From NCBI RefSeq assembly GCF_947623445.1, contig NC_135246.1:19028288-19092287 (forward strand): DNA of 64,000 nucleotides, read 5' to 3'. A program made the position numbers and the translations under genes. Source of the stretch: Clavelina lepadiformis. Lineage: Eukaryota. Below the pieces are notes generated by a model that had not been told where the DNA came from, made no database searches, and saw nothing but the letters and a program-made list of their open reading frames with translations. Below are positions 20,098-61,108 of this stretch, in pieces; the first letter of the stretch is position 1; each line of letters begins with the position of its first letter.

Positions 20098-21284
20098 TTA
20101 ATCCACTTCTTCCAGAATGTCTTCCTCGAACTCTTCATCGCTATCTATTTCATAGATCCCAAAATGTTGTGTTCGATATGCCAAATCTTGTTTTTCCTTG
20201 GCATCGTCTTCTTCGTGTTCCATTAGACTGCATAAAAGACAACATACAAAAGATAACTTCAATGAAGAATTTGTCGTATTTTGCTACTACCAGTCCGTGT
20301 TTTGGATGCAGACAAGTGCTTGCTACTGTACTTAAATCTAATGCTGTACTTCAACTTTTCAAAAGTTATTTAGTGTAATTTGCTTTGTCATTAGATTAAA
20401 ATTTTCAATTGACCATTTGGTTTACATAGACAGGTATTTGTGCAGTTATATACAGACATGTATGCTACACATTTCCAAGAACTTACTGAAGTAAAAGGTG
20501 ACCAATTCGATTACCATCTCCTTTGTTTGCGAAACTTAAACAATGTTCGAATGTCATATCTACAAATACATAAATTTAACTCAACCAAGGTTCTGTATAA
20601 GCTTATTGATATTATTAATTAATATACTTGCACCTACTATCATATCTTGTGTATTTCAGGCTATGACTTTCTAGATTGAAGAACTCCATACAAGAATATT
20701 GAACTGGTTCAAACAAACTCTTTTGATTCAATGGGTTCAGTACAATGAACCCATAGTAGGGACGAACATAGCTGACCAAAAATGAGCGAGTCATGAAATC
20801 GGCTCATGCAAGCTATGATAGACGTTTAAGCAGCAAAATAGAATATAAAATCCGTTAAAAAATAAAATAATATTACACAAAACGGTAATGAGCTTGGCTT
20901 ACCTTGAATACACAAATAACGTCCCCTCTGCGATTAATTCCTCCTAAAATAATTGAAATTTGTTTCAATAATATAGAGAATAGATTATTATTAACTGCTG
21001 GAATAACTACACGCAAACGCTGTTACACCTACACCAGTTCTTTCTAGAAAAAGTAAAACTAGGCTAAACTTTATAAAAGTACAGATAGTGTCATTGCCAT
21101 AAATTGTGAAACATGTAAAAAATTCAACAATAAAGAAAATACACAAGCAACATACCGTTTGTGTATTTAAATTGTGCTTGTAAGCTTCCACTTGACTTGC
21201 AAAATCTATGATGTGTGAAATAAATGGATTATGACGGCGAAGTGTTCTCAAAATAACGTTCTTTTCCATTTCAGAAAACATCAT
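20098..21284 (-). CDS. DCP1-like EVH1-domain protein paralogue P5, 5 exons, ~168 aa. It mirrors P4.
   Basis: Exons on the minus strand are 21156-21284 (MMFSEMEKNVILRTLRRHNPFISHIIDFASQVEAYKHNLNTQT|gtatgt), 20903-20943, 20638-20771 (S YVRPYYGFIVLNPLNQKSLFEPVQYSCMEFFNLESHSLKYTRYD), 20487-20559 (NMTFEHCLSFANKGDGNRIGHLLL) and 20098-20227 (terminal, ...DLAYRTQHFGIYEIDSDEEFEEDILEEVD*). The GT-AG introns share phases with P1-P4. Exon 2 (GGINRRGDVICVFK) has lost the canonical GTLFVY motif, so this may be an early pseudogene. Confidence 0.5.
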
Positions 21285-22040
21285 GAAAAATAGTTTGCAC
21301 AGATATGCAGTAAATCTGGTATTTTAATCGCGAGCAATATTATACATATGCACTGCACAAAGAAATTTGTGAAAGTAAAGAACATCTTTTAGACAGATTT
21401 ACTTTTCAACTGCAATCACTGTACAGGACAACTGCTTTTATAGGGCAGTCATCTTATTAAAACAAAGGGATTGTCTACTAGAAAAAAATTACAAGCAAAA
21501 AAGAACTTGAAACCATGGCTCAAAAGCAGTCAATGACGAGATCAACACAGGTTAAAAGTTGTAAGTTGGTAAACGATGCACAATGTGTGAAAAATTCAAC
21601 AGTATACACAAGCAGCATACCCTTTATGCGTTTAAAATGCAGATATAAGCTTTAACTTGTTTGGAAGAATCTATGATGTGTGAAATGTATGAATTATGAC
21701 GCCGAAGTATTCTCAAAACAACGTTCTTTTCCATTTCAGAAAAAAATGGAAATTATTTTGCACGGATATGCAGTAAACCTGGTATTTTAATCGCGAGCAA
21801 TCATATACACAAACATTGCAAAAAGAAATCTGTTAAAGTAAAGCACATCTCTTAGACAGACTTACTTTTCAACTGCAGTCATTCTACAGGACAACTGCTT
21901 TTATTGGGCTTCCATCTTATTAAAAAAAGGGATTGTCTAATGCAAGATATTACAAAGCAAAAAAATTTGAAACCATGTCTCAAAAAGTAATCAATGATGA
22001 AATCAACACAGGTTCAAAGTTGTGACTTGATTGGTGATAG
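21100..22040. repeat. Local tandem duplication with a ~480-bp period and two copies. It contains the P5 exon 1 and a second exon-1 copy.
   Basis: 21100-21560 matches 21580-22040 with ~85-90% identity read by eye (gtgaaa[c/a]atgtaaaaaattcaaca..., gtaaagaacatcttttagacagatttacttttcaactgca...). Confidence 0.6.
21639..21755 (-). pseudogene. Extra P4/P5-type exon-1 copy with an in-frame stop
   Basis: The minus strand encodes MEKNVVLRILRRHNSYISHIIDSSKQVKAYICILNA*. A TAA precedes the donor gggtatgctgc. Confidence 0.45.
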
Positions 22041-22079
22041 CACCATATTCCAAGCATAAACTTTTTCGTTAAAGATAAA

Positions 22080-27244: not shown

Positions 27245-28551
27245 TTAGGCCATATTCTCCTCCGAAGCAACATCGCTTAACTCCTCATCATCACTGCTCT
27301 CTGATGATGAATAAGTGCTGCAGGGAAAGTCCGGAGGATTCTCCAACTCTTTCCACACACTGTGAAAAAAGTGCAAAATTCAGTTTTAATAACAAGTCTT
27401 CCAATTCCATTTGTCTGAATTTTGATGGAAATTTATTGCATAATGACGTGCAGTAACTTATAATTAAAGAACAGTGTTATATACTTGTTGCCTATATGTT
27501 ATATATATATTGATTTATCAGCATATATAGCACAAATAGAAATATTAGATTAGATATTTATTAGATAGCACTTTGTAATTATCGCTTATTTTTAAATGCT
27601 CAACACAAGCTAAGCTAAAACAATAGAAATAACTGTTAAGATGCATAATGCTATCCAGAATCTTGCTTTTTACTTCACTGTATTCTCATTATATACTGGG
27701 CTCACATGATTCAGCTTTCATAAATTTTGGAATATTCTTTCTGTTACAGGCTTACAATTATATATATAAATGTAACTTGTAAACGTTAAGAAACTGTAAC
27801 TTACTCCTTCAACAGATTTCCCATGCATATGCAGTCGAAATAATCTTGAAACATTAGGCCGTAAGTTGCTGCAAATAATTAATTAAAATTAAATTAAAAT
27901 TTTTCATAGGTTACTACAAAACAACTATAACAAGGGCACTAACATCCATAGTACTTGTAAGTTAAAAAACAATGTTCGGCGATCATCTCGGCGCTAGGCG
28001 TGTTGGGTTCCGTGAGGTCTTTCGGGGAAAGTTTGTTAATAATAACATGGCCAGGTTTGAAAGGATAAGAACTGTTAAAACATAAAAGCGTACGCGTCAA
28101 AACCTTAATAACAAATATAATGCAAATTTTTAAACAATCATAATAAGAACAAGTAAATCTATAAAGAAAGAAAATGATTTGACTTACCGTGAATAAACAA
28201 ATAATGTTCCTTTCATTTCAAGATATTCCTTAAAAAATAGAAATTTATCTTTAATGATTAATTTAATTTTTGTAAAATGAGTTACGTAAAAAACTGTAAA
28301 ATCAGTAACAGTTATTTGCAGTAAAAGGCACAGTTGGAATTTCAAAACAACTTAGCTGTAGTTGTAAGAAGTTGAAATTAGTGCAATTTTCTCAAGATTT
28401 CCGAACGTTGCAAACGACTTACCCATTCTTCACTTTCCTCATCAAGACGATAAACCGCCACTTGATTAGCATAACCCAAGATATTTGAAATGTGAGGGAT
28501 GTCAGCCAGAAGTGCGTTCAAATTGATTAACATTTCAATGTTCGACTCCAT
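27245..28551 (-). CDS. DCP1-like EVH1-domain protein paralogue P1, 5 exons, 158 aa
   Basis: Exons on the minus strand are 28423-28551 (MESNIEMLINLNALLADIPHISNILGYANQVAVYRLDEESEEW|gtaagt), 28188-28228 (EYLEMKGTLFVYS), 27944-28071, 27805-27868 (..YGLMFQDYFDCICMGNLLKE) and 27245-27359 (DVWKELENPPDFPCSTYSSSESSDDEELSDVASEENMA*). All introns are GT-AG. The protein aligns with the DCP1 EVH1 consensus (NL.aL...DPyIt.I.d.a.QVAlY.F......We + IEGTLFVYrR + ..GF.I.N.l + DC..i). Confidence 0.7.
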
Positions 28552-29167
28552 TTTAGCAAGTTTATAATTACTCTGATAAGCAAAATATTTTAATCGCGAA
28601 AGATAATGCAAAGTTGCAGCTTACTATAAACCCTGGCAAAAAACGAATTGAAAAGTAATGGTTAGACTTTAGACTAGACTATAACGTCATTTCGTTGCTT
28701 GGCACTATACCGTCAACTAGCATCTAAGCCTGATTAAAAATTTTTGCTCAACATTGCGTCATGTTTTCTTTACTTTACCAGGCATTGCATCAAGCAATGT
28801 AACTTTACACAGAAGCAAACTGCTGAAAATTACGCAGAGTACAAATACACTGCAAAAAAATCTTTTAAAGTAAAGCACATCCCTTAGACAGACTTACTTT
28901 TCAAATGCAGTCACTCTACAGGACAACTGCTTTTATAGGGCAGTCATCTTATTAAAACAAAGGGATTGTTTACAAGAAAAAATTTCAAGCAAGAAAAAGA
29001 ATTTGAAACCATGTCTCCAAAGTAATCAAGGACGAAATGAACGCAGGTTCAAAGTTGTGAATTGGTAAACATTGCCCAATCTTGGTTAGCACCTGTGCAC
29101 CTGTTGTTCTGAGACAAGGAATTTTCTTTGAAAGACTCGCGCCATTTACAACTTAGAATAAGACCGT

Positions 29168-29779: not shown

Positions 29780-31170
29780 GTTTAGTTTGAATTTGAATAC
29801 AACGTTGAACGGTTAAAGTGAACTTTAAATCCCAGCACGTAGTTGCAATTGAAGCAACAACTTCATGCAAAAATTATCTTTATATCCAAGGTACTTTGAC
29901 ACGTTTTGGACACAAATATTACTTGTTTATAGATAACTTAAAGGAGAAATTTAGGAACAAGCCTACTTGGAGGAAAGCAAAAGTAGCAGTCCCAACAAAT
30001 AACGTAAAACCTAAAGCGTTTCATGACCAAGATATGGAAAGTACACCACAAGGATAACATTAGTGATAAATGGTAATAGGAATTGCAAGAAATGAAGCGA
30101 GGTATAACATTGCACCAGAGGCAACGTACTGTGCTATACATTGGAAAAATGAGCATTGATGTTGATAACGAGAATAACACGTTAGGAAAAATGGAAAGTA
30201 ACTGTTAATTTTGGGCGCTAAATTTTGGTGTAGATCTTACAAACTAAAGCTTTTTATTTAAATGGACAAACCTTTTCAAATGCTTATTTGTTGATGACAG
30301 GGTTTAATTGTTTGATCAAAAAGGCCTCATGTACTTTGTTTTCATAACCGGTTTTACATTTAAGGAATATGTTGAAGTTATTCGGTCGTTACGTCACAGC
30401 GTCTGTATTTGATGAAATGGTAATTTTTATGCACCGATCTGACAACATGTGTGTAAAATTATGAAATATTTTTGCATTGCGCCACGAATGGAACGAGCCA
30501 ATTTCGTCCAGCTCTAAACAAAACCATCCGGTCATTTTGTGTTAAGTAAAACCTGTCTGCGATTTAATCTCCATTGAAGTAACGCAACAATTTATGAAAC
30601 GTATTTTCAAAATGAAATGTTATTATTTTGATGTTATCAAAGTTGTTTAACTTGTTCACATTCATAACCCATGATAACAAGCTTTAATTTGAAATAACGA
30701 AAGTGTGACATTAAATAACTGACCTTTGTTGTCCTCGATTAATCTACTTCTTTTTTGAGAATATTTTCGTTGAACTCACCTTAGCAGTCGTCATCATCGA
30801 ACTCTCCTGTTTTGGATGCAGACAAATGCTTGCTACTGTACATAAATCTAATGCTTTGTCAACTTTTCAAACACTATTTAGTGCAATTCGCTTTGCCAAT
30901 TAGGCTAAAATTTTCTATTGAGCATTTGGTTTCAAGGTTACTACATTTTTCTTACATAAAAACGTGCTGATAGAAACGGATGTTTGTACAGTAATATACC
31001 GATATGTATGCTATACCTATCGCAAAAGTTGTTAAAACAACACCAGTTTTTTGTAGAAAAATCAAAATTAGGCTTAACTTAATATGAGTACAGATAATGT
31101 TAACACAATAAAATAGAATACGTGTGAAAAATTCAACAATAAACAACATGCAAAAGCATCCCATCCGTGA
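29780..31170 (-). repeat. Gene-fragment repeat, family A, ~1.4 kb. It is a DCP1-like intron-4 plus terminal-exon plus 3-prime-flank segment, here with the terminal exon degenerated.
   Basis: The reverse complement of 29940-30900 aligns block by block with 41640-42540. Examples are cctattaccatttatcactaatgttatccttgtggtgtactttccatat..., cgctgtgacgtaac[g/g]cccgaataacttcaacat and ccagctctaaacaaaaccatcc[g/a]gtcattttgtgt. The terminal-exon homologue at ~30740-30830 is truncated. Confidence 0.55.
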
Positions 31171-33980: not shown

Positions 33981-34520
33981 ATGCTTCGTTGGATATGTCG
34001 AGAAGAGAAGGAAAGAGAGCCAGAGATATTTGAAAACGTGTCGTTGGGTTTAAAGAATCTTTATAAAAGCAGACTTAAACCACTGGAAGAGGCATATAAA
34101 TTCCATAACTTTCATTCACCTGCATTACACAATGCTGACTTTGACTCAAAGCCTATGATTTTACTAATAGGCCAGTACTCAACCGGAAAAACAACGTTCA
34201 TTAGATATTTGTTGGAAAAAGATTTTCCAGGCATGAGAATTGGCCCCGAACCAACAACAGACTGCTTTATTGCTATAATGGCTGGTGCAAAAGACAAAGC
34301 CAGTGGAGTTGTCAATGAAGGGATTGTTCCTGGAAATGCTGCTGTTGTCGATGATACAAAACCTTTTAGGGCCCTTTCCTCATTCGGAAATGCATTTTTA
34401 TCTCGGTTTTTATGTTCTCATATGGAAAATGAAGTTTTAAACAGCATCAGCATCATCGACACTCCTGGTATTTTGTCTGGTGAAAAGCAGAGAGTAAACC
34501 GAGGTTATGATTTTGCAAAG
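33981..34520 (+). CDS. EHD: EHD (EH-domain-containing dynamin-like ATPase) exon 1
   Basis: The translation MLRWICREEKEREPEIFENVSLGLKNLYKSRLKPLEEAYKFHNFHSPALHNADFDSKPMILLIGQYSTGKTTFIRYLLEKDFPGMRIGPEPTTD...SIIDTPGILSGEKQRVNRGYDFAK matches the EHD1-4 N-terminal G-domain, including the P-loop GQYSTGKTTF and DTPG. The donor follows at aag|gtaatt. Confidence 0.85.
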
Positions 34521-34772
34521 GTAATTTTAAAGTGAGGTTTCTCGTCAACATGCATAACCGAGCCATAAATTATCTAAAGTAACACTTGTACATATTATAG
34601 TCCTTTGCAATTAATTTAATCAAATTTACCGATAATTTTTGTTTTGGTTTGCTCGTATTATGTTTTGTTTACCTTTTAAGACAAATAATTACCATGAATA
34701 CAAATAATTACTTAATTACCTTAATGTTTACAGCGAATTTAGAAGTCCTTTTGTTAGCCTCAGTTTTTTCAG

Positions 34773-34979
34773 GTGCTGACCTGGTTAGCAGAGAGAGTTG
34801 ACCGGATCATTCTCTTGTTCGACGCTCACAAGCTTGACATTTCAGATGAGTTCCATGAAGCTCTCGACGCCGTTAAAACCTTTGATTCCAAGATTCGCGT
34901 TGTTCTAAATAAGTCGGACCAAGTCAACACTCAACAACTGATGAGGGTTTATGGAGCTCTTATGTGGTCCCTTGGAAAG
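34773..34979 (+). CDS. EHD: EHD exon 2
   Basis: The acceptor is ttttttcag|gtgctg. It encodes VLTWLAERVDRIILLFDAHKLDISDEFHEALDAVKTFDSKIRVVLNKSDQVNTQQLMRVYGALMWSLGK, the canonical EHD NKAD/NKSD region. Phase is 0. Confidence 0.85.
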
Positions 34980-35306
34980 GTAGGCTAATCTATGCAGGAT
35001 GGGGAAATTATGGAATTTTCTTCCAGTAGGGACCACATGCACAGTATGATTTTAACATCATTATAGTTTTTCTCTTACCAAATTGCACTGAAATGATAAA
35101 GTTGGAGCTGTTTGATATGACATAATCATATGCTTTGCTTGCATTTATAAAGACTAAACATATATCTTATACTGTATGATGTCATGAGTTTGTGCTTAAC
35201 TGGTATTTGTTGGTATCATTTATAAACATATTTAAAGACAGCATAAAGTTGACAGTTTTATGCACCTGACTCCAACAAAGGGTGCAGCTAAAGCTTGTGA
35301 TCTCAG

Positions 35307-35495
35307 GTAATAACCACACCGGAAGTGGTTAGGGTGTATATTGGGTCATTCTGGGACCAACCACTACGCTACGATGAAAACAGGCTCTTGTTTGAAGCTG
35401 AACGCAATGATCTCTTTGATGATATTCAAAGTCTGCCCAGGAATGCTGCTTTAAGAAAACTGAACGATTTAATTAAAAGAGCTAGACTAGCAAAG
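35307..35495 (+). CDS. EHD: EHD exon 3
   Basis: tctcag|gtaataacc encodes VITTPEVVRVYIGSFWDQPLRYDENRLLFEAERNDLFDDIQSLPRNAALRKLNDLIKRARLAK. Compare EHD1 IINTPEVVRVYIGSFW...RARLAK. Confidence 0.85.
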
Positions 35496-35846
35496 GTGAA
35501 CATATTATCAAGTTTCTTCAGACTAATTTACATTCCATTCTCCACATGCGTTCATTTGTAGTTTAGCTACTCGATATTAGTTTCAATATACACATGTTCC
35601 TATTACTTTGTAATACACTTGTTATTATAAGTTTTGCAAATGGCAGCAAGAATGTTATCTGTGTTTATGGTAAGTTGACTTTGCTTCTAGTTAAGGCAGT
35701 ACATTAGGCATCAGTTTAGCGTCACTATTTTCAGGCACCGGCTGAAGTTAGGAAAGAAAACATGCATTTGTGATAGTGCATGTGCATCATCGATCAGACA
35801 TGCAAGTGTGATAGACTTTTAATGTTTTCACTTTTCTTATTTTTAG

Positions 35847-35982
35847 GTCCATGCTTATATCATCAGTCATTTGTATGACAGCATGCCGTCCCTGTTTGGC
35901 AAGACCAAGACCAAGAATAAGCTAATTAATGATCTGGAAAAAATCTTTGTCGAACTGTCTCATAAACACAGCATCTCACTTG
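35847..35982 (+). CDS. EHD: EHD exon 4
   Basis: ttttag|gtccat encodes VHAYIISHLYDSMPSLFGKTKTKNKLINDLEKIFVELSHKHSISL(G). It ends in phase 1 before gtaagc. Confidence 0.8.
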
Positions 35983-36372
35983 GTAAGCTATTGCATTTTT
36001 GGCCTGTGGTTAATTTATGCTGCATAACTATGTCAGTGAAGAAGACCACAGTTACACTTTGTAGTACGGGTGGTTGTGTATAAATGTACGATGGCTTTTG
36101 TTAGGCAACGATTTAAAATAAAATTTTGCTTGATTACACAATGTAACAAAAAAAGAAAATTTTTTTGTTCCCAGGTTCTAATCGATTTTTCCCTATTGCT
36201 TAGGACCAGTAAGTGTTGAAAATCAACTTTATTTCATATAAACTTTGTTTTTGTGGTTTAGAGACTGAAATTCTAAAATCGCAATATTTTTGAGAAAAGA
36301 TATCAAAGATATGGCTAAAGAGCATCCAAGATGGATGTTAATCACTTTTAAATGTTAATATACTCTCATTCA

Positions 36373-37196
36373 GTCCACCTGAAAGAAAACTATGAGACTG
36401 TTAAGACTTTGTTGAATGTTTTAAAGTACGATCAATATAACTGGGAAAAATTGGGGACTTTAAAATGGTAGCGTTTGTAATGGGTATGCAAGGGGGGTTC
36501 ACCAAGTATCCTTGCCACCTTTGCCTTTGGGATAGTAGGGCTACCACAGAACACTACAAAAAGCAAATATGGCCAAAACGAAACGAATTTGTTGTTGGAG
36601 AGAAAAACGTAGGGCAAACTCGGTTGATTAACCCAAACAAAGTGCTTATGCCTCCCCTTCACATAAAACTTGGGCTTATAAAGCAATTTGTGAAAGCATT
36701 GGATAAAGGTGGTGACGCATTCCAGTTTCTGAAAAACTTGTTTCCTGAACTATCAGAAGCTAAAGTAAAAGCTGGTGTATTTATTGGCCCACAAATTAAA
36801 AAGATTCTCAAGTCAAATGATTTTATCCAAATGCTTAATGATGTTGAAAAGAAGGCTTGGGATAGCTTTGCAGATGTGGTGAATGGGTTCTTGGGCAATA
36901 ACAAGGAAGATAACTATGCCGAACTCGTTGCCAATTTGGTAAAGTCGTATGGAAACATGGGGTGCAGAATGTCCATGAAAGTACATATGCTTGATGCTCA
37001 CTTGGACGAGTTTAAAGACAATATGGGAGCTTATTCAGAAGAACAAGGGGAGCGATTCCATCAAGACATAACAGATTTTGAAAGGAGATACCAAGGGCAA
37101 TATAATGAAAGCATGATGGGAGATTATGTCTGGGCCTTGATGCGGGAAAGTGATGTGGAGTACAAAAGAAAATCCCGCAAAACATCCCATTTTTAA
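36373..37196 (+). pseudogene. Transposon-derived ORF remnant inside EHD intron 4. The intact 243-aa ORF is 36465-37196, preceded by a frameshifted continuation.
   Basis: The ORF reads MVAFVMGMQGGFTKYPCHLCLWDSRATTEHYKK...MGCRMSMKVHMLDAHLDEFKDNMGAYSEEQGERFHQDITDFERRYQGQYNESMMGDYVWALMRE. It is single-exon, sits in the sense orientation inside a host intron, and carries a Cys/His motif. The upstream +2 frame reads LKENYETVKTLLNVLKYDQYNWEKLGTLKW*, so it is a fragment of a larger ORF. Its family is unresolved. From memory I associate this motif pattern with transposon-domesticated proteins common in invertebrate genomes, but I cannot place it in a family. Confidence 0.4.
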
Positions 37197-38202
37197 CTGA
37201 TTTTATACTTGAACTGTTTTAGCCTGAAATACTTATTTAGTTTTGCATTTAACATTTAATGATGGTATTGATTCGGATACAGTTGATACATTTATGTGCA
37301 AATTTCCATGTACCAAATGCCTGTGCTTTGTGATTTGATTTTAATAACAAAAATTCTAATTCGTTGCCTGTTACTAGGCAAACTCAGAATTAACCCTTTG
37401 CCAGACAGAAAAATAGCCAAAAGTTGGCTGTAATTTGCTTTGCGAAAAAGCAATCGATAGCCTACGACTAGCGCGTCAGAATATTTAGTAAATACATTGA
37501 TAGAATATAACTTCTTAGTCGATGCCAAGCGATTAAAAATGGACTTACAGCGATCAAAGACAGTTTGGTAAATATCCATTTCCTATAGGGTAAATCAGTA
37601 TAACCATGCACAATATTGCACATACAAGCAAATTCAAAAAATTACTCTCCTAACCACAAAATCAATGTTTGGAATGAACTATATTGATTTTTGGAAGTTT
37701 CTAGGTGAGAGAGATCAGGAAATATCAATTAGAACCCGGGAACAAAAATCGTGTTACACAGTGTTATCTAACTCGATTGAACACATTCATTGTATAAGCC
37801 ACAAACATTGTCTGGTCAGTCATCCAAGGTATTTGTCTTTAAGTAGTTGTTGTTGTTGTGAAATTGTGTTGATACGAAACGAATAGTCGTTTTTAAAACT
37901 AACATTACTTGATAGGGCATTGCAATCAGAACTGCTTTAAAGTGCAAGTGCTAAAACAAGTTTACCTTAATCAAAAATGTGTCGGTTGCTGTAAAATATT
38001 TTTTTCCGGGGCTTTTCCTGGCATCTCTTATTTGGTTTAAGATCGACTTGTTTTAGAACTTGCCCTTCGCTTTATACAAGAATACTTCTAAAAAATAATA
38101 ACAGTTTTTATTTTCCAAATGTTTGGTTTCATTTTGTTCTTTTATAAACTCGCTTGGCTTTGTGTTACTATTAAGATTGCTTTGATAATTTCTGTCTTGC
38201 AG

Positions 38203-42750: not shown

Positions 42751-42767
42751 GGAAGAGTTGAGTTGCA

Positions 42768-42868: not shown

Positions 42869-44560
42869 GTAAGCTAATACGATTTAAATTTTGTATCCAC
42901 AAATCTATTAAGTGTAACTGTTTAAGCAAAAAGTTACAGCATTTGTCTAACCACTTCCTTTATCTTTCACGTTTTAATGATGTTTTTCTGTGCATCTGGG
43001 TCTGCAGCTTAGCTTCTTTGTTTTTCAAAACCAAGCCTGTTCGGGGATTGTGAAGCACTCGATATGAATGTAGTTAACATCATCAAAGCTAATTATATGA
43101 CTGAATTGAAACACTCATAGCATTGTAGACCCAATTAATTATAATAGATAATTATAATAATAAACAATAAACATTATATATATTTAGAGGTTTATGTTAT
43201 TGGACAAGATTTGGGAATCAATAACGTAATGGTGTCACAATTGCCATTCTTTGATGTACCATTGAAACTAGTCGTATAGCTCCTCTTAGCGCATTTTAAC
43301 TAAAGCTATCTTTTAGCTGATGAGCCTGACTTAGAAGAAGAATCAGATTAACTAACCTTAAGACACAACACAGAGGTTAGTTATTCTGTACGAGTTGAAA
43401 CATTTGCTTTTTCTCTGGCATTATTAAGTCGTTACAACGACAAATAAATTTTTCATCCATTATATAATCATGTGATGCGACTGGGATGATTGACAATTGT
43501 TGTTTTCTTTTAGTTTTGGAGACATGATGGCTTATTTCAAGTTGTTCACTTCAAAAAGAAAAAATCAAGTGTAGCAATAGGCAGATCTTTTTTCTGTTTG
43601 GTAAAAATATACCTTTCCCAATATTGCAAGAAATGTTTTGAAATGCGCACAAATTTTCACGCAGCACTGTGTTGTTTTGTACTATGTTATTTATTTTTTT
43701 AAATTATAATAATTTATAATATTTTTTATAATATACTTTCTGTAATTGTTCATTTTTACAATTTTCAAGTTTCCTATTAACAAATGTGATTAGTAGCATA
43801 GCAGTATGTTTCCATTGCATTTGTACCTGAATGAGTGCATACTACATTTTATTACATTTTATATTACACAATATAGTTGAAACATTTTGCTATTTGGTAG
43901 CCTAGATTTCAGCATAGATAGGCAGGTACTCTAGTACTGATAGAAGGCGAGTAGAATGGTAGAAAAGAAATCCTTGGACAGATGACTCAGTTTGGATGAA
44001 AGAAAAAATTTTCTAAAAATTGATAAACAGCATTTCAAGTCTTTCAAAAACTATCAGTAGCCTACTGAAAATTAGCACTCCAGTACATTGTAAAGGGTTG
44101 TCAAGTCCAGTACTGTACTCTACAAAAACAGCTCTGGATGCTGGATTGACTATTTTTGTTGTATAAATGAAGACAACATGCGCCGATGAAATAGGCTAGC
44201 ACATTTTGAAAAACGTCTTATAGAGCAGACGGCTTTTACGCACAATGATAAAATAATTTAATGGATGAATGAACTTAGTGCTCTACCGCCAACTGGCGGT
44301 CGTTATGACAAATCTACCATCACATAAGCTTGAAGTATTGATGTCAAAACTCACTACACGAGAGCCAGATCCGTTTAATTAATCTCCGGAGTTGTTAAGA
44401 CTAAATACACCGACGTCAATCTGGTTATAGTTTCCCTAGTTTATATCATAACGATTCAGTTATTCAGATCCTGCCTACCTGCCTAAAACGTGTTGGGTAA
44501 ACAACTGGTGTGGTTTGAAATTAGCTACAACGTAAAAGTAACTTAGTCCTTCCATATATA

Positions 44561-45199
44561 TGTGGCGGTCGTGATAACAAACAATAATAAGTTATGTAAT
44601 TAGCATTTTAAAAAGCGGATTGTGTGTTTCTCCAGTTAGAGGCAATTCAATATTTAAACAGATGTATTATTCGTGGTTAAGCAGTTATTCAAACAAAGGA
44701 GTTTGAAGTGTTTCAAGTACCATATTGTATTTTTACCGTGTAACGTTTTGATGGTACTTTGGTCAAGAGCTTCGGTGACAATAGAATAATGTTAGATGTG
44801 ACATAGCTTGTACGTAAGAATGCAAAAATAACATATGGCACGCGCCCATTGGTCAAAATACGGGAGTATAAAAGCTAAGGTTTGGTCTAAATTGGGATCT
44901 TCTCTCTTCGTGCTTTTCGGATTATTCGGTTTACTGAATTATTCGGAATTGGAATCATTACTGAATTCGAGTTATAGCTTGTTTAAATGTGAAAATATGG
45001 TGTAAATGTTTCTAATTTGATACAACCTATTCGGACAATATAACAATTAGACTTTATGAAGTTGGTGTTGATTTGAAAAAACATTATAGAGACAGCAAAC
45101 ACAACGAAGTCAAAGACAATTGTCTATAGGAGTCTAACAGTAAGACTAATAGTCTTGGCTTAGGCCAACCTAAAAGCAAAGCCACACCGCCATCCCCAC
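44561..45199. mobile_element. Transposon-like insertion of 639 bp, specific to duplication copy 2. It is internally related to the MULE-like element at 14562.
   Basis: Copy 1 has the uninterrupted site tccatatatacactaaagc. Copy 2 reads tccatatata[TGTGGCGGTCG...CCGCCATCCCCAC]atatacactaaagc, with a TA-rich 4-5-bp target duplication. Insert blocks 44700-44800 and 44990-45195 match the reverse complement of 14760-14980, for example caacacca[g/a]cttcataaagtctaattgtta[c/t]attgtccgaa and ttgtcaccgaagctcttgaccaaagtaccatcaaaacgttacac. Confidence 0.5.
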
Positions 45200-45204
45200 A
45201 TATA

Positions 45205-46628
45205 CACTAAAGCTTACACACCATATTTTCAATGCCCTTTTCTTAACATGAAAATAATGGTTTTTGAAAATCAATGCACTTTTAAATTCACTACGTTAAC
45301 AAGAACGCATTTAAACAAAACAAACACAATTTTATAGTAAACATTTGTCTTAAGTTTAAGCAATGAAGTTATTAAAATTGAAGTCTAGTCCCGTAGTTCT
45401 TTAAATTCGGTTAACTTTATCCGTGAATCTAACAATAGTAAAATAACTAATATTCAAAATTTGCAAATTTTATTTTCAATGATAAATTAACCTGCAAGTG
45501 TTGTACTTTTACACTCTGCCGTTAAACGACACAATAACTAAACCAATTTTTATTCAACGTGTAGCATGGTTCTGTCGAACTTATATTTCAAAAACGGAAT
45601 GGTAGTGGTAAAAAACGACAAAGTTTTCATTGAAATTAAACTTTGGTATATTTTTGCAGTCTAATAGAAGAGGAAGAAAACGATGAATATGAAAAACGAG
45701 ATTTAGCATATCGAACGCAAATTTTTTGGATATATGAAGAACTGCATGACGACGATAGCGATGGAAAACTCGACGATGACGATAGCGATGATGAGTTCAA
45801 CGAAAACACTCTGGAGGAAAAAGTGGTTTAATCGAGGACAACAAAGATCAGTTAGTCAATGTCACAGTTTTGTTATTTTCAGTTAAAGATTGTTACCAAG
45901 AATTGTGAATGTGAACAGGTAAAATAACGTTAATAACATCACAATATGACCATTTCATCATATACAATTGTTGTGACGTAACGCCCGAATAACTTCAACA
46001 TTTTCCTTAAATGTAAAACTGGCAATGAAAGCAAAGATGATGACGCCTTTTTGATAAAACAATTAAACCCTATCATCAACAAATAAGCATTTGAAAACGT
46101 TTAATCATTTTCAATGCAAAGATTTAGTCCATAAGACCTATTTCAATATCCAGCGCCAAACCTTACCTGTTATTTTCCATTCTTCTCACCGTGTCGTTCT
46201 CGTTATCCAACATTGTCAACGCCACTGTTCATTTTATCATAGCACAGTACGTTGCCTCTGGTGCAATTTCATACCCCGTTTCATTTTTTTCGAAGTTTTT
46301 TAATACCAATTATCACTAATGTTATCCTTGTGGTGTACTTTCCATATCTTGCTCATGTAACGCTTTAGGTTTTGCACTATTTTTTGGGACAGCTAATTTT
46401 ACTTTCCTCTACGACTCTACGTAGTAATTATTATTCCATTATGTTATCTACAAAAAAAGAAATGTTTATGTCCAAAACGTGTCAAACTAATTTGAAAATA
46501 AACATCATTCTTGCATGAAGTTGTCGCTTCAATTGCAACTACGTGCAGGGATTTAAGGTCGATTTTAACCGCTCAACATTGTATTCAAATTCAAACTAAA
46601 CGAAAAAGCATATTTAAGCAAGCTTATA
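45205..46628 (+). repeat. Family-A gene-fragment repeat. It lies inside tandem-duplication copy 2.
   Basis: It is a tandem duplicate of 41330-42750. ORF 45643-45831 is near-identical to ORF 41762-41974. Confidence 0.55.
45660..45831 (+). pseudogene. Orphan DCP1-like terminal-exon homologue, the duplicate of 41779-41974. Its stop codon is retained.
   Basis: It encodes ...DLAYRTQIFWIYEELHDDDSDGKLDDDDSDDEFNENTLEEKVV* and ends at TAA 45829-45831. Confidence 0.4.
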
Positions 46629-47635: not shown

Positions 47636-47934
47636 CAGGGGCGGGCAACTTTTTCGGTCGGCGGGCCTGATATGAGAAAATAAAGTACTTGGCGGGCCGG
47701 ATTCCTGAATCGATACATTAATCGTGGATTTATCCACCTATGCAAGCAATAAATCGTATTTAATGTAAACTTTAAGTTTTAAGCATAGAGACCAAAAACA
47801 GTATTTAATGAATTTATTAACGATTAATGTACTTCAATAGCTGCTGAAGTCAAAACTGAACTGCTAAACTGAACTGCTGAACTGTCTGCGGGCCGCTCAA
47901 AATCCCGTCGCGGGCCGTATATTGCCCACCCCTG
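47636..47934. mobile_element. hAT-type MITE, 299 bp
   Basis: The TIRs are CAGGGGCGGGCAAC... and ...TTGCCCACCCCTG. It is flanked by a perfect 8-bp TSD GTCTAGTC at 47628-47635 and 47935-47942. The homologous position in the left arm (~28660) is an empty site with a single gtctagtc. Confidence 0.7.
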
Positions 47935-48061
47935 GTCTAGTCTATATTCTATCTATTACCTTTCAATTCGTTTTTGTCAGGGTTTATAGTAAGTTGCAAC
48001 TTTGCATTATCTTTCGCGATTAAATTTTTTTGTTTATCAGAGTAATTATCAACTTGCTAAA

Positions 48062-49333
48062 ATGGAGTCGAACATTGAAATGATAATCAATTTGAACTCA
48101 CTTCTTGCTGACATCCCACACATTTCAAATATTTTGGGTTATGCTAATCAAGTGGCGGTTTATCGTTTTGATGAGGAAAGTGAAGAATGGGTAAGTCGTT
48201 TGCAACGTTTGGAAATCTTGAGAAAATTGCACCAATGTTATAACTTATTGGAATTACAACTATACGTTTTTTTTTTTGAATGTCCAACTGTGACTTTTCC
48301 TGCAAATAACTGTTATTGATTTTACAGTTTTTTACGTAACTAATTTTACAAAAATTACATCAATTATTATTATTAAAGATAAATTTCTATTTTTAAGGAA
48401 TACCTTGAAATGAAAGGAACATTATTTGTTTATTCACGGTAAGTCAAATCATTTTCTTTCTTTGTACATTTACTTAACCTTGTTCTGCTTGTTTAAAAAT
48501 TTGCATTGTATTTGTTATCAAGGTTTTGACGTGTACGTTTTTATGTTTTAACAGTTCTTATCCTTTGAAACCTGGTTTTGTAATCATCAACAAACTTTCT
48601 CCTAAAGACTTGACGGAACCCAACACGCCTAGTGCCGAGATGATCGCCGAACACTGTTTTTTAATTTGCAAATACTATGGATGTTAGTGCCCTTGTTATA
48701 GTTGCTTTTGTAGTAACCTGTGATATATTTTAATTTAATTTTAATTGATTATTTGCAGCAACTTACGGATTCATGTTCCAGGACTACTTCGACTGCATAA
48801 GCATTGGATATCTGTTGAAGGAGTAAGCTACAGTTTCTTAACATTTAAAGGCTACTGTAAATATATTTGTAAACATATAACAGAAAGTACACTCTAAATT
48901 TATGAAAGCTGAATCATATGAGCCCAGTATATAACCAGAATACAGTGAAGTAAAATGCAACATTCTGGATAGCATTATGCATCTTAACAGTTATTTCTAT
49001 TGTTTTTAGCAAAACTTGTGAGGAGAATTTTAAAATAAGCGGTAATTACAAAGTGCTATCTAATAATTAATTAACTAATATCTAATAATAATCTAACATT
49101 TCTATATATACTGATAATTCAATATATACATAACATATGCAGTAAGCAACAAGTATACAATATTATTCTTGAATTATAACTTACTGCACGTCATTATGCA
49201 ATAAATTCACTTTTTTCACAGCCTTTGGAAAGAGTTTGAGAATTCTCCGGACTATCCCAGTAGCAATTATTCATCATCGGAAAGCAGTGATGAAGAGGAG
49301 TTAAGCGATGTTGCTTCGGAGGAAAATATATAG
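48062..49333 (+). CDS. DCP1-like EVH1-domain protein paralogue P2, 5 exons, 157 aa. It mirrors P1.
   Basis: The exons are 48062-48190 (MESNIEMIINLNSLLADIPHISNILGYANQVAVYRFDEESEEW|gtaagt), 48398-48438 (EYLEMKGTLFVYS), 48555-48682, 48759-48822 (TYGFMFQDYFDCISIGYLLKE) and 49222-49333 (DLWKEFENSPDYPSSNYSSSESSDEEELSDVASEENI*). All introns are GT-AG, and the phases are conserved with P3 and P4. Confidence 0.75.
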
Positions 49334-52129: not shown

Positions 52130-52490
52130 CTGAGTTGACATCAGACGACTCTGTAAATAAAGAAATTAACAAACTCGCAGCTTGATAACAATAGAAGGTT
52201 TCCTGCTGGTTTTATCTATTCACTGCGGGACGTTAATCAGTTTGCAACTTAGACTTCGGTTCAAGCATCTCTTTTTTCATCGTTTCCCTTCTTGTACCGT
52301 ATGAATTCATCAAGTTGCAAAATAATCATGCATTTGCGATTGAGAAAGGTGAGCGTTAAGATCTGCTTTTTCAACACATTTGTCTATTCATAGTAACTAC
52401 CAGCAATTTACTTCTGTGCTAAGTTACCTTGCATGATCCATTGCTTAGTATAGCGTAGAAAAACTTGACGCAATGAATGACTTCAGATTT
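52130..52490 (+). repeat. Partner of 13404-13760. It covers -580 to -220 relative to the P3 ATG.
   Basis: See the partner feature. Confidence 0.6.
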
Positions 52491-52707: not shown

Positions 52708-53949
52708 ATGGCGTTCGAAGGTGAAGTAGAAGTTAATTTGAAAGCACTTCTTCGCGAAGATCAAAGCGTTTCGGACATCCTTGATTCTGCAAATCCAGTT
52801 GCAGTTTATATTTTCAATGATGAAAGCAAAGAATGGGTATGTTGTTGGTATAAACTTAAGTAATCATTTCTAACTATGGTTTTAACTTAATCACTTATTT
52901 TAACTTTTCCGAGACTGCTAAATTATGCTGCAATTTTGTTCGATTCGTTTTGGTAGCTTGGATGATTGAGATTACAAAGTTACAACTTTTTAATAAGTTT
53001 TATGCCCTCCTTTGCTTCCGAGCACAAAAGATTCCCAATAAGATGTATTATTTAGTTCTACTACAATGGAATCTTATATTAAAATAAACTTTTTGTATTT
53101 TTAAGGAGAACATTGAAATGGAGGGAACGATATTCGTTCATAAACGGTAAGCCAAACTTATTAACTTACCTTATTGCTTAGTGTTCTTTAAATCTTGTTC
53201 CGTTTAATCAATATTTCGCATTATGCAGTAGTATATCCCGAGTACTTTAAGGATGTAGGGCACATAATTTTGCAATTTCTAATTTGACTTTTCAGTTGTG
53301 TGTTGCTGTAGGTTGTGAAATATTAAAAGTGTTTTTTGTCTGTTCTTTAATCTTGTTCTGTTTGTTCAGCATTCTACATAATACAGATAATTTTACCACA
53401 ATTTATGACATAAATTCTTTCAAGTTTTGACATTATGCATCGCCCTACATTTGGCTTCACCATCATGAACCAAGAGAGTTTGGATAATTGGAGCCAAACT
53501 CTCTATCCTGGTTTGGAGTTTCTTGAATACTCACCGTTCCTGGTGACCAGAAATACTAAATGTAAGTGCATTCAATGTGATCGATTATACCGTAGTAGTA
53601 GCCTAAGTTGAGAATGCATTGGACAATAGGATTTTATGTTTTATATGTTTCAGCAATGGGCTTCGGCTTGAAATTTGAAAACATGGTCGATTGCAGACGC
53701 ATGGGATATCTTCTAAACGAGTAAGTATTAGCTTCATTATAAAGATGCACATAAACTTATACATATTACTATGAAACACCAAGTGGTAACATTATGAACA
53801 AACGCTGATTTAATGATAAAAAAAATCAAAGCAAATATTACTGGGCAATATTTTTGCGATTTTTTTTACAGTCTTTGCAAATAGATAGAATGGACCATGA
53901 AGGCTCTCCCATTGAAGGACTAAATGAAATTGTTAAACTAAAGGATTAA
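52708..53949 (+). CDS. DCP1-like EVH1-domain protein paralogue P3, 5 exons. The terminal exon is ambiguous.
   Basis: The exons are 52708-52836 (MAFEGEVEVNLKALLREDQSVSDILDSANPVAVYIFNDESKEW|gtatgt), 53106-53146 (ENIEMEGTIFVHK), 53425-53561 (R FDIMHRPTFGFTIMNQESLDNWSQTLYPGLEFLEYSPFLVTRNTK) and 53654-53720 (SMGFGLKFENMVDCRRMGYLLN). The last exon is either 53872-53884 (DLCK*, stronger acceptor ttttttttacag) or 53889-53949 (EMDHEGSPIEGLNEIVKLKD*, acidic tail like other paralogues). P3 is the closest to the DCP1 consensus, with HGFTIVNRL matched by FGFTIMNQE. Confidence 0.65.
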
Positions 53950-57740: not shown

Positions 57741-58758
57741 GTGTAAAAGATATTCGTTAGTTTTACGTGAAAATGTCTGTAATAATTTACAGTTGCGTAC
57801 GTTTTCTTAGTTTAACCCTGTTTTGAAGTTTACCTGATTTTCTAGTATTTTCATTTCCATGCGATTGCCGAAGTCCCACAACCAATGATTTGTTTGATAA
57901 TATCACGTGACCTTCCAGTAGTCACTTTGAATATATTTTTTCCAATTAAGGATGTTGTGTGCGTTCTGTCAAGTTGACCTAGGCTAGCTGTTGCTAGCAG
58001 GCAAGGGTCATGGGTTGTAAATGATACAATGCACGATATATAGTTATATATATATAGGCTAGAAGTATACTTTCTGCTGGTTATGATAACGCACGGGAAG
58101 CATCAGCTCAGCAAAATTTATTTGATACGCGTAATGGCCAACGTTGGAGTTTGTATGCTAGAGGGTTCGATTCTTGCCGTTGTTTAATTTCTTTCTTTTT
58201 GTTAAAATTTATTTTGAATTTAACATAGGCCTATAGTCATGAGCAGGGTTTTTTTTAAGGTTTGGTTTGGGTGACCGCTAAGTAGTTTTAAGAGACCGCA
58301 AGTGTGTCATTTAAATACCAAAAAAAGTAGTAGTAAGTTGCAAGTCCAAATTTTGGGAAACCGCTGGAGAAATTTGGGGGACCGTTTCGGTCCCTCAAAA
58401 CACCTTAAAAAAAAACACTGGTCATGAGAGATGAAAGTTTGGATCGTAGGTACCGGTGTCGTGCCAAATAGTGACCCCCATTTGTGACGTAAGAAATCGA
58501 TTCATTCGACACCGAATAAGCTCTATACACAAGTAGCCTACAGAACTTTTTGACAGAAGTAGTCCAACACCTGTGACCTGTATAGGGTATTTTTTTTGCT
58601 GCTGTGCTGTAGAATGACTAAATAAGTAAGTCTATTTAAGGGATCTGCTTTACTTTAACAAATTTCTTTTTGCAGTGTTTATGTATAAGATTGCTCGCGA
58701 TTAAAACACCAGCTTTACTGCATATACCTACAAAATAATTCTTCTAATTTTCTCTGAA

Positions 58759-61108
58759 ATGGAAATGAATGAAATTGTATTGAGAATACTTCGTCGTCAT
58801 AATTCATACATTTCACACATCTTAGATTCTTCCAAACAAGTTGAAGCTTATATGTGCAATATAAACGCAAACAGGGTATGTTGCTTGTGTATATTGTTGA
58901 ATTTTTCACACATTTCCCATTTTGTGGTTTAGTCTACTTTTAATTTTTCTACAAAGACCTGTTGTTACTTTAATAGCTTTCGTTTGTAATTATTCCACCA
59001 TTTATCAATCTATATTCTATAATCTATAGTATTGAAACAGATTCTAATTTTTTAGGGAGAATTCATCATAAGGGGAACGTTATTTGTTTATTCAAGGTAA
59101 GCCAAGCTCAATACCGTATTGTGTAACCTCATCTTATTTCACTGTTGGATTTTATATTCTGTTTTGCTTCTTAAACGTCTACAATAGCTTTTCTAAGCCT
59201 GGGTTCCTGACTCGCTCATTGTTGTACAGCTACGTTCCAGCCTACTATGGGTTCATAATATTGGACCCATTGCAACTGTGCAGCTTGTGTGAACCGGTTT
59301 GTTATTCGAGCGTAGAGGTCAACGAACGCGAAAGTGGTCTTCTAAAATACGCAAGATATGACTGTAGGTTCAAGTATATTAGTTAGTAATATCAATAAGC
59401 TTACGCAGAACGTTGAGCTACTTAAGATTATCTATTTGCAGGTCCGTTTTACGTTCATCTTTTAAACTTCGCCAGTGTGGAAGAATGTGACCGAATCGGA
59501 CAACTTCTAGTTGAGTAAGTTCTTGTATGTGTATATAGCGTATTCGGAGGGGGCATTGGGCCATGGCTCCCATCACTACCCCAAGTTTTTTGGGGTCCAT
59601 AGGCGTTTTTGCGTCTTAAGCTTCTTCGTTTATCGTATTTTTGAGACTCCTTTCGACTTTGACCGAAAAGCGTTGCAATTACAAATACACAAAGCTCCCT
59701 CTTAATTGCGTTCCCTTTTAGAAGAAACACACAGACCAAATGTTTGCAATAAAAGCCACAGAAGCAGGTATAAATATTTTATTAAGAAGGCGCGAAAAAG
59801 GTTTCGAACAACATTCGTTCTTTATCGAAGCTGGAATAAATTATAGGAGTTGAATTATCGATTTAAGTACTCCACAATGTTATATTAAAGTAAGAAGAGA
59901 ATAAAATAAGTAGATAAGAAATATGAGCCAACAACGTGCAGAAGTAAACGATAATGTCAGGAAAACAATGAGTCTGCAACGATTCGTGGAACATGGTAGT
60001 TAAACAAAACGGACATGCAAAGCAGTAAACCGCATGGTGCAGACATGTCGGAATATTGTGTTTGGGCTCTAGTAAATTTTTAGTCCCACATGTTTTACGG
60101 CGCCGCTGGCACGAAAATTTATTTATCGTTTGTTTCAAATCGCCATTGTTATCGCTTTGTCAGGGAGAAAAGTTATTTATAAAGGGTTTTTTTGCAGATA
60201 GCAACATTTCAGTTCCAGTACAGTGAAGTCGATCATAAAGCAGGAAGGGAAGTTTATTTTTCAGAATCAAAAAAGCAGAAAGTTTTGTTAGTTTCCGAAA
60301 CGACCAAGGTTGTAAGCGGCGATGTAACAGAAAAGAATCACAGTAACGTTCCCTGTTTTTGTAAAAAAAATACCAATGTTTGTCGGACGCAGAGCCGCCA
60401 TTTGACATTGCACGTGCCATTGTCACTCCTTTGTTAGATGACCGAAAGCGTTTTGTGATAAGTGTTTTTATAAAAAGACATTGTGTGCATATTTTGAGGT
60501 GACCTTGACTTTAGTAGAAATGACATATCGCGAGAGTAATTAGAAAACTACAATTTATTTCCAGGCGTTTTTAAGCGGTGTTTTGACGAAAAAATATAAT
60601 TTTTGCGCTCCACGAATTTTGGCGGAACGGACGTACGCGTGAGTTTTAAACCTAGTACTAAAACGTTTTGGTCCTCCATAAACGTCATCCAAAATACGCT
60701 ACTGTACATGGCTGTATGTAACTGTAGCCTGCATGAATCAGTTTCTATCAGCATATTTTTATGTAAAAAAAGGGTAGTAACCTTGAAACCAAATGCTCAA
60801 CTGAAAATGTTAACATAATTGGCAAAGCGAATTGCACCAATTAACTTTTGAATAATTGACATAAAGCATTAGATATAAGCACAGTAGCAAGCGTTTGTCT
60901 GCATCAGAAACACGGACTGGTAGTGGCAAAAAAACGACAAACTCTTCATTGCACTTAATCTTTTGTACGTTTGTGCAGTCTAATGCAAGATGAAGAGCAA
61001 GATGTCTATGAAAAACAAGATTTGGCATATCGAACACGGAATTTTAGGATCTATGAAGTACATAGCGATGATGAGTTCGAGTATGAATTACTACAACAAG
61101 TGGATTAA
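58759..61108 (+). CDS. DCP1-like EVH1-domain protein paralogue P4, 5 exons, 164 aa. It mirrors P5.
   Basis: The exons are 58759-58875 (MEMNEIVLRILRRHNSYISHILDSSKQVEAYMCNINANR|gtatgt), 59056-59096 (GEFIIRGTLFVYS), 59230-59363 (S YVPAYYGFIILDPLQLCSLCEPVCYSSVEVNERESGLLKYARYD), 59442-59514 (CPFYVHLLNFASVEECDRIGQLLVE) and terminal 60979-61108 (DLMQDEEQDVYEKQDLAYRTRNFRIYEVHSDDEFEYELLQQVD*). Intron 4 is ~1.46 kb. The ORF-track entry 59084-59386 is intron read-through into exon 3. Confidence 0.6.

Follow-up and report, generated by a model that had tools for sequence, protein, structure and literature searches.

A tandemly expanded family of EVH1-only DCP1 genes beside the full-length gene in Clavelina lepadiformis

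In the current view, metazoan DCP1 acts as a trimer that docks on EDC4 and recruits EDC3/LSm14 through its helical leucine-rich motif (HLM, motif I), and the role of its EVH1 domain on its own is debated. In human cells association with EDC4 and DCP2 depends on trimerisation, and EDC3/LSm14 is bound by the HLM (PMC3877753, PMC4005699). Of the decapping factors tested with the isolated human EVH1 domain, DCP2 and PNRC1/2 were the only ones bound (PMC11530239). Here we describe a cluster of short DCP1-like genes in Clavelina lepadiformis that encode an EVH1 domain and little else. Five of them, PA to PE, lie in a stretch of 64,000 nucleotides (contig NC_135246.1, positions 19,028,288 to 19,092,287; hereafter the window), to which the models and coordinates below refer; L001-L004 denote loci from a second assembly, made from another individual. 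Including two further genes outside the window (PF and PG), seven intact short genes and the canonical DCP1 gene span ~115 kb.

A plant DCP1 sequence, used as a lead only, picked out three places in the window. One five-exon gene was read from the DNA, its exon peptides then located the other copies, and the models were built by hand. On the minus strand are PD (20098-21284; 168 residues; exons 21156-21284, 20903-20943, 20638-20771, 20487-20559 and 20098-20227) and PA (27245-28551; 158 residues; exons 28423-28551, 28188-28228, 27944-28071, 27805-27868 and 27245-27359). On the plus strand are PB (48062-49333; 157 residues; exons 48062-48190, 48398-48438, 48555-48682, 48759-48822 and 49222-49333), PC (52708-53884; 128 residues; exons 52708-52836, 53106-53146, 53425-53561, 53654-53720 and 53872-53884) and PE (58759-61108; 164 residues; exons 58759-58875, 59056-59096, 59230-59363, 59442-59514 and 60979-61108). 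The stop codon of PD ends at position 20098 and that of PE at position 61108. All five genes have five exons, GT..AG at every intron, intron phases 0/2/1/2 and a second exon of 41 nucleotides.

These models agree with a first-pass annotation made from the sequence alone, which had placed five intact-looking paralogues of ~130-170 residues, with a common five-exon structure and identical phases, and at least four fragments in 50 kb; the proteins found measure 128-168 residues. PB is an inverted paralogue of PA, and PE of PD. The amino-acid identity of PA and PB, put at ~93% by that annotation, was measured at 88%. The acidic Ser/Asp/Glu tails that it described are present in most copies, PA among them, but not in PC, in which a stop directly follows ...DLCK. 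Intron 4 has 1464 nucleotides in PE versus 259 in PD; PE carries a ~1.2-kb insertion at ~59520-60780 that has no PD counterpart and is probably a mobile-element remnant.

By exact-sequence look-up, PA is identical end to end to XP_076820256.1 and CAK8671213.1. The same end-to-end identity holds for PB with XP_076820072.1, PC with XP_076820241.1, PD with XP_076820711.1 and PE with XP_076820141.1 to XP_076820143.1. Since the hand-built proteins are identical to the RefSeq proteins, their splicing was reached by an independent annotation too. Two of the five, PA and PD, also match models of the second, separately annotated assembly exactly, and this second annotation was RNA-seq-guided (funannotate, PMC10950049). 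A 41-residue ENA protein (P0008), the sole non-NCBI member of the database clusters, was considered as transcript evidence and rejected: its contig, 99.5% identical to window positions 19470-20242, is unspliced metagenome genomic DNA. The genome paper mentions neither decapping nor DCP1 nor any expansion (PMC10950049). The first-pass annotation had known of no described family like this one, and no description of such a family was found in the literature searched; the genes themselves, though, already bear RefSeq names, all five being entered as 'mRNA-decapping enzyme 1A-like' or '1B-like' of Clavelina lepadiformis.

Membership of the DCP1 family was confirmed with the Pfam model PF06058 (117 positions; gathering threshold 22.5 bits), which is matched over positions ~2-116 at 68.2 bits by PA, 69.6 by PB, 85.3 by PC, 55.5 by PD and 40.8 by PE. 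Among the five window copies PC is the closest to the canonical EVH1 domain (E 5e-17 to human DCP1a, 4b6h), and PG is closer still. AlphaFold2 models of PB (pLDDT 75, with residues 134-157 of the tail disordered) and PD (pLDDT 81.5, with a tail predicted to be helical) both contain an N-terminal helix, a seven-strand β-sandwich and a C-terminal helix. In keeping with the EVH1 assignment of the first-pass annotation, the 20 best Foldseek matches of both models in the PDB are all Dcp1 EVH1 domains, from human (4B6H), fly (2LYD), S. pombe, S. cerevisiae and K. lactis, with target-normalised TM scores of up to 0.77-0.87; the best match of PD is human DCP1a 4b6h (TM 0.85 on the target). Other EVH1 domains and RanBD domains follow with E-values about four or more orders of magnitude worse. 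The Dcp1 fold is thus predicted to be retained in the short proteins, together with the N-terminal helix that is specific to Dcp1 and makes contact with DCP2.

Downstream of PG, at a distance of 3.5 kb, is the canonical DCP1 gene of Clavelina (L001 15203-20771). Its exon 1 is 65-68% identical to residues 1-57 of Ciona and Phallusia DCP1, its HLM reads VNIMDLLFKAKDRYDK, and its trimerisation-domain exons are at L001 20178-20336 and 20661-20771. The deposited model of 497 residues is truncated; exons 1 and 2 and the trimerisation-domain exons are missing from it and are all present in the DNA. That Clavelina might be without full-length DCP1, which does not appear among the best 120 matches to a stolidobranch DCP1 query, was considered and rejected once the gene had been found in L001. 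The first four canonical exons measure 141, 41, 128 and 67 nucleotides with phases 0/2/1/2, and exon 5 starts ...LCK.

The short genes arose as truncated copies of the canonical DCP1 promoter and exons 1-5, duplicated repeatedly in tandem and in inverted orientation. This is shown by the matching exon structure together with four further features: the stop of PC, the tail of PA and PB, a relic of the HLM and a motif upstream of the genes. The PC protein stops with DLCK* at the point at which canonical DCP1 continues as NLCKGEK. In PA and PB the tail SSSESSDEEELSDVASEEN can be aligned with canonical SSSTSSISETAIDEELIQVAPDEK, which belongs to the Ser/acidic stretch located behind the EVH1 domain in tunicate DCP1. 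An out-of-frame HLM (motif I) relic, GQLVNVTVSLFQVKD, lies in the 3' untranslated region of PD (20024-20083, minus strand; canonical counterpart NQPVNIMDLLFKAKDRYDK), and the same relic is found in that of PE (61123-61182, plus strand). Its similarity to the HLM is weak (GQLVNVTVSLFQVKD versus NQPVNIMDLLFKAKD; tblastn E 0.3-0.4 for copies beside orphan exons). The promoter-proximal motif YTCGCGATTAAA occurs five times in the window versus 0.94 times expected, a count reached in 0 of 100 shuffles. All five copies (48013-48024 and 58694-58705 on the plus strand; 21323-21334, 21786-21797 and 28589-28600 on the minus strand) are ~35-65 bp upstream of a DCP1-like exon 1, belonging to four genes and one fragment, and on the strand of the gene; a related sequence precedes the canonical gene. 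Stop codons within exon 5, upstream of the HLM, leave the EVH1 domain and, in most copies, a short acidic tail.

The family reaches beyond the window, where two intact genes, one frameshifted copy and the canonical gene were found. PF (XP_076820486.1, 168 residues, locus L002) is of the PD type, with exons of 129, 41, 134, 73 and 130 nucleotides as in PD, and PG (XP_076819608.1) is a protein of 212 residues at locus L001; both proteins splice-match the second-assembly DNA exactly. PH is a PC-like copy with a frameshifted exon 3 (L002 6181/6183). The intact genes fall into three subtypes, PG with PC, PA with PB, and PD with PE and PF. Gene order, established by aligning L001-L004 with the window and by the coordinates of the records, is PG, canonical DCP1, ... 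PE, PC, PB, an EHD gene, PA, PD, an exon-1 fragment, a tRNA array, PH and PF.

The five proteins were combined into a profile, with which 1.84 billion representative proteins were scored. Only Clavelina sequences exceeded 140 bits, and the next sequences were full-length DCP1 proteins, headed by Ciona at 139 bits. A PD-type profile run against 5.8 billion clusters returned only Clavelina. A word-indexed homology search with PC had returned its own cluster only (4 candidates); this search is insensitive and was superseded by the exhaustive profile search. Short DCP1-like entries of other animals were examined as possible members and rejected, as all readable ones have a canonical NR loop; most of them end in junk after an exon boundary, which points to truncated or read-through models. 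As far as the data reach, the subfamily is restricted to Clavelina, in keeping with the lineage-specific expansion that the first-pass annotation had supposed. In a neighbour-joining tree of the EVH1 domain, a distance method with bootstrap support, all Clavelina copies group with the canonical gene (83%) inside the tunicates (96%), with PA+PB and PD+PE+PF each supported at 100%; placed beside a bona fide DCP1 in this way, the copies stay with the gene of their own genome.

The short proteins end 4-43 residues after the EVH1 domain. None has a match to PF16741, whereas nearly all full-length homologues listed have one, and the trimerisation region, which the first-pass annotation had described as lacking, is indeed absent; PA-PE are also without the HLM (motif I), and the canonical Clavelina gene has both elements. 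Residues within the EVH1 domain were read from an alignment against the positions described in PMC4005699 and PMC4986892. The Asn71-Arg72 pair of the NR loop (human numbering) is reported to be invariant and to be needed for DCP2 activation, not binding (PMC4005699). This pair is NK in PA and PB, NQ in PC, NP in PD and DP in PE, none of which is the invariant NR. The S. pombe aromatic cage consists of Y36, F38, W45, Y93 and W107 (PMC4986892), of which Y36, F38 and W45 carry identical human numbers. All five window copies retain Tyr36; Trp45 is still present in PA, PB, PC and PG and has disappeared from PD, PE and PF. The Trp107 and Tyr93 positions were placed via the conserved IWFY and LLYRN motifs and not by direct alignment to S. 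pombe; so placed, Trp107 is M, M, K, S and N in PA, PB, PC, PD and PE, respectively, and is kept in the canonical protein and PG, and Tyr93 is conserved in PA, PB, PD and PE, with T in its place in PC. Among the residues that contact DCP2, PC alone has kept N77, and PD alone has His at the position of H19 (compared with PMC4005699). The N-terminal helix and the EGTLFVY core are retained.

The ratio of non-synonymous to synonymous divergence (dN/dS, omega) was estimated pairwise by the Nei-Gojobori method (NG86) with 95% confidence intervals. Omega was 0.16 (0.08-0.30) for PA-PB, 0.24 (0.15-0.40) for PD-PF, 0.26 (0.12-0.48) for PC-canonical, 0.23 (0.12-0.37) for PG-canonical, 0.54 (0.33-0.89) for PD-PE and 0.56 (0.35-0.83) for PE-PF. 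The interval excludes 1 in every tested pair, and the value near 1 that the first-pass annotation had named as speaking against the family was not seen. Intact open reading frames persist over dS 0.36-1.8. PE is the most relaxed copy, by these ratios and by a tail in which dN relative to intron divergence, dN/K(intron), is ~0.9. As judged from their coding sequences, the short genes appear to be maintained as coding genes under constraint. Their evolution is also roughly tenfold faster than that of canonical DCP1: in Tajima relative-rate tests with Ciona or Phallusia as the outgroup, over ~115 aligned positions, each short copy had 25-53 unique changes versus 0-5 for canonical DCP1 (p 3e-5 to 2e-11).

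Whole-gene omega as a sign of plain purifying selection was set aside as an insufficient summary, because exon dS is anomalously high relative to the introns. Among PD, PE and PF, exons 3-4 differ at 33-39% of sites versus 20% in the four introns (Fisher p 1e-4 to 1.6e-7). In these exons dN/K(intron) is 1.4-2.1, significant in two of the three pairs, and dS is also high (0.74-1.39). Exons 3-4 of PA and PB have a dS of 0.68 versus an intron divergence of 0.12, but a low dN. In exon 5 of PD and PF, by comparison, dS (0.22) equals the intron divergence (0.23), dN is 0.01 and dN/K(intron) is 0.04.

Sequence has also been exchanged between loci. In the second assembly the PB locus (L003 9850-10370, aligned to window 47913-48440) is PA-like from upstream through exon 2, with 46 PA-type versus 8 PB-type diagnostic sites; from intron 2 on, 98 sites are PB-type versus 9. 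Between the assemblies PB differs at 74 of 1454 sites and PA at 25 of 1501. These data demonstrate interlocus gene conversion from PA to PB, with a tract polymorphic between the two individuals. On the three to seven sequences available, the excess of exon over intron divergence may reflect diversifying selection on the EVH1 core; or repeated short-tract conversion may homogenise the introns, with selection rejecting tracts that erase coding differences. Under either explanation the coding differences between copies matter.

At least five DCP1-like fragments accompany the intact genes in the window. A PD/PE-type exon 1 (21630-21743, minus strand; 50.3 bits; 71% identity to PD exon 1) has an in-frame TAA just before the donor site. 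The segment in which it lies (21586-22029) repeats in tandem the promoter, exon 1 and 5' part of intron 1 of PD and matches 21114-21568 at 83% in self-comparison. An orphan PD-type exon 5 encoding the acidic tail (41780-41938, plus strand; E 3.7e-10 to PD exon 5; blastn match to 20039-20302) is followed by an HLM-like relic, and its tandem duplicate forms a second orphan exon 5 (45661-45819, plus strand; E 5.5e-11). A copy of the PD 3' end and flank (30531-30981, minus strand) has lost most of exon 5; 19902-20133 matches 30531-30777 at 78%, and 20298-20423 matches 30808-30932 at 87%. A degenerate remnant (13838-14408, minus strand) retains an exon-2-like piece (14364-14408) and a tail-like piece (13838-13909); its matches to profile models are weak, its similarity to the PD tail has an E-value of 8e-5, and 14218-14406 matches 28052-28232 at 73%. 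Outside the window, an isolated piece resembling DCP1 exon 1 (L001 5420-5548), 49% identical to Ciona residues 5-47, falls inside the span of a Kelch/BTB gene upstream of PG.

Self-comparison of the window, which is AT-rich (G+C 33-37% from 18 kb onward), revealed an inverted segmental duplication (~18.9-31.0 kb versus ~62.8-45.9 kb, 73-90% identity) and a tandem duplication of a 3.26-kb unit (39505-42750 versus 42767-46628, 97% identical). Between the two inverted arms bearing the DCP1-like genes sits an EHD-type gene (33981-39791, plus strand) with EHD_N, Dynamin_N and EH domain matches, annotated as a protein of 556 residues in the second assembly. The 3.26-kb unit begins inside the last EHD exon and includes an orphan PD-type exon 5. 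The distance from EHD to PB is 5.3 kb in the second assembly versus 8.3 kb here, and the unit is apparently single there, which suggests that its copy number varies between individuals. The listing of open reading frames showed no long bacterial-type frames in the window, which is uninformative for an intron-containing eukaryotic locus.

The left end of the window is occupied by an unrelated tandem array with a 2309-bp unit (1-13406, continuing past the end), which is also seen at L002 1-5197. At least 5.8 copies are present, with an identity of 99.95-99.99%. Every unit has four tRNA-Ser genes (anticodons AGA, CGA, CGA and TGA) on the minus strand at 159-bp spacing, and the window holds 24 tRNA-Ser genes. 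The array is located at a breakpoint ~225 bp upstream of PH: on one side (window 13402-13764) it is bordered by a match to sequence upstream of PC (52133-52486), and on the other (L002 5190 onward, region 5190-6905) by a match to PC that starts at 52481. Immediately past PF, at the cluster edge, an open reading frame of 524 residues with a Herpes_UL52 primase-type Pfam match (L002 13086-15851) possibly belongs to a large mobile element.

The first-pass annotation had suggested that EVH1-only Dcp1 proteins could be dominant modulators of decapping. We favour the reading, to which we assign a probability of roughly 0.45, that the short proteins would act as scaffold-independent, monomeric EVH1 modules that compete for or divert DCP1 partners and thereby tune decapping. 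Off-scaffold action is proposed because the HLM and the trimerisation domain, the ties to EDC3/LSm14 and EDC4, are missing, so that the short proteins would have no tether to either. With altered NR loops and remodelled aromatic clefts, each subtype may bind a different subset of EVH1 partners, either the DCP2 regulatory domain or proline-rich ligands. Competition with full-length DCP1, or diversion of its partners, would then tune decapping and involve no new catalysis.

Several observations weigh against this reading. No transcript-derived copies are present among the database cluster members of the five proteins. Canonical Clavelina DCP1 (GFTIMNQLSMENL) and PG also have NQ in the loop, so that Arg72 is not strictly invariant in this species; the short copies share its loss with the canonical protein, and a loss of activation does not follow from it alone. 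Human DCP1a EVH1 alone rescued decapping in DCP1a/b-null cells (PMC11530239), so that EVH1-only proteins could be activators instead of competitors. The class of exons 3-4 is small (64-69 codons), and its dS lies well above the intron divergence, so that the exon-intron contrast may reflect intron homogenisation by conversion in place of positive selection. Finally, the cleft of PD, PE and PF is so altered that their partners may be unrelated to decapping.

In a second explanation, which we consider somewhat unlikely, the short proteins are neofunctionalised EVH1 adaptors or decoys that work outside decapping and reuse the fold as a peptide-binding module under rapid diversification, for instance as decoys or sensors in conflict with viruses or mobile elements that target DCP1, with the acidic tail as a new interaction motif. 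The EVH1 core exons of PD, PE and PF that outpace their introns would fit such a role, as would the roughly tenfold faster evolution, the replacement of cleft Trp and NR-loop residues, the highly conserved and predicted helical tail of PD and PF, and the copy turnover, pseudogenes and conversion at the locus. In addition, DCP1A is reported to be a target of viral proteases (PMC11869656, PMC9907797). On the other hand, PC and PG are still near canonical DCP1, no pair reaches a whole-gene omega of 1, and homogenisation of introns by conversion offers a non-adaptive account of the exon-intron contrast. A more far-reaching version, which we regard as distinctly speculative and improbable, holds that the array is a set of diversifying DCP1 EVH1 decoys: conversion would shuffle the copies and selection keep their ligand-binding exons different, and the products would intercept viral, transposon-derived or endogenous factors that target or use DCP1. 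If true, this would represent an innate-defence-like or conflict-driven elaboration of chordate decapping, with natural off-scaffold inhibitors or re-targeters of DCP2.

The rescue by the human domain bears on a third explanation, that the short proteins are minimal, yeast-like DCP1 activators which would bind and stimulate DCP2 without the EDC4 scaffold and so raise decapping capacity, generally or at particular stages, for instance in embryos, budding or dormancy. Fungal Dcp1 consists of the EVH1 domain only (PMC4005699), and the Clavelina copies keep the helix and the EGTLFVY core. An activator would hardly be expected, however, to have R72 replaced in five of five copies, N77 kept only in PC and N71 changed to D in PE; fast, copy-specific divergence is unexpected for a conserved role, and seven copies for dosage alone are unparsimonious. 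We hold this explanation to be doubtful.

Even less probable is that the genes are non-functional by-products of segmental duplication, with open frames called by predictors on their way to becoming pseudogenes: many dead pieces do surround them (the exon-1 copy with a stop, the orphan exon 5 copies, frameshifted PH and degenerate remnants) and PE combines relaxed constraint with an intronic insertion, but seven frames have stayed intact with canonical splice sites at dS of 0.36 to above 1, the omega intervals exclude 1 in all pairs tested, exon 5 of PD and PF has 1% non-synonymous versus 19% synonymous differences, the promoter motif is conserved, and two independent annotations, one of them RNA-seq-guided, agree on the PA and PD proteins.

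The locus amounts to a natural experiment: seven EVH1-only derivatives, in three subtypes differing at the NR loop and the aromatic cleft, beside an intact full-length gene. If expressed, these variants would allow one to ask which EVH1 surfaces bind or activate DCP2, whether scaffold-free EVH1 modules inhibit or redirect decapping in vivo, and what drives their fast diversification. Animal genomes commonly contain lineage-specific expansions of truncated duplicates, and this family has so far been seen in one non-model species. The locus is also a compact example of how partial duplication, premature stops, conversion and exon-specific divergence build a new small-protein family.

Two kinds of better-known gene family resemble this one in part. 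MicroProteins, such as the Id proteins and plant LITTLE ZIPPER, are short paralogues with one interaction domain that are proposed to titrate their partners. The likeness of the DCP1-derived genes to them would be one of architecture; microProteins act on transcription-factor dimerisation, and no comparable case for DCP1 was found in the literature searched. In snake-venom phospholipase A2 (PLA2) and conotoxin genes the exons are more diverged than the introns, and loci of the major histocompatibility complex (MHC) have homogenised introns. PD, PE and PF share with these families an excess of exons 3-4 over the adjacent introns at synonymous and non-synonymous sites, and conversion at the locus; they differ in encoding the domain of an intracellular mRNA-decay cofactor, not a secreted toxin or an antigen-presenting molecule.

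The closest relatives remain the Dcp1 proteins themselves. Canonical metazoan DCP1 (DCP1a/b, and the proteins of Ciona, Phallusia, Styela and Clavelina L001) has the same PF06058 domain, EVH1 fold and N-terminal helix as the short proteins; exons 1-5 of the neighbouring canonical Clavelina gene are structured like theirs, and tunicate DCP1 has, after the EVH1 domain, a segment homologous to the acidic/Ser tail of PA and PB. The canonical proteins measure ~500-700 residues against 128-168, and the short ones differ from them in lacking the HLM and PF16741, in the replacement of the NR-loop Arg and of one or two cleft Trp residues, and in their roughly tenfold faster evolution. An engineered human DCP1a EVH1-only construct has the architecture of the short proteins and rescued decapping (PMC11530239), and an NR-loop GSSG mutant, with a non-canonical loop like theirs, bound DCP2 and EDC4 and gave no activation (PMC4005699); both are laboratory mutants with otherwise wild-type surfaces, unlike the Clavelina proteins. 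Fungal Dcp1 (S. pombe, 127 residues; 2QKM, 5J3Y) is EVH1-only and of similar size, with Foldseek TM scores of 0.77-0.81 on the target; because an EVH1-only Dcp1 is normal in fungi, the architecture itself is not unprecedented. The two are independent, the Clavelina genes being secondary truncations of a metazoan-type DCP1 with an HLM relic, and the NR loop and aromatic cage are preserved in fungal Dcp1 (PMC4986892) but not in the Clavelina copies. Moreover, the EVH1-only protein is the sole Dcp1 in fungi, whereas in Clavelina the short genes stand beside a full-length gene. The protein family, the EVH1-only architecture and the automatic annotation of these genes as DCP1A/B-like are thus already known; new are a tandemly expanded, fast-diverging EVH1-only DCP1 subfamily in a metazoan beside the intact full-length gene, the divergence of its exons over its introns, and a conversion tract that is polymorphic between individuals.

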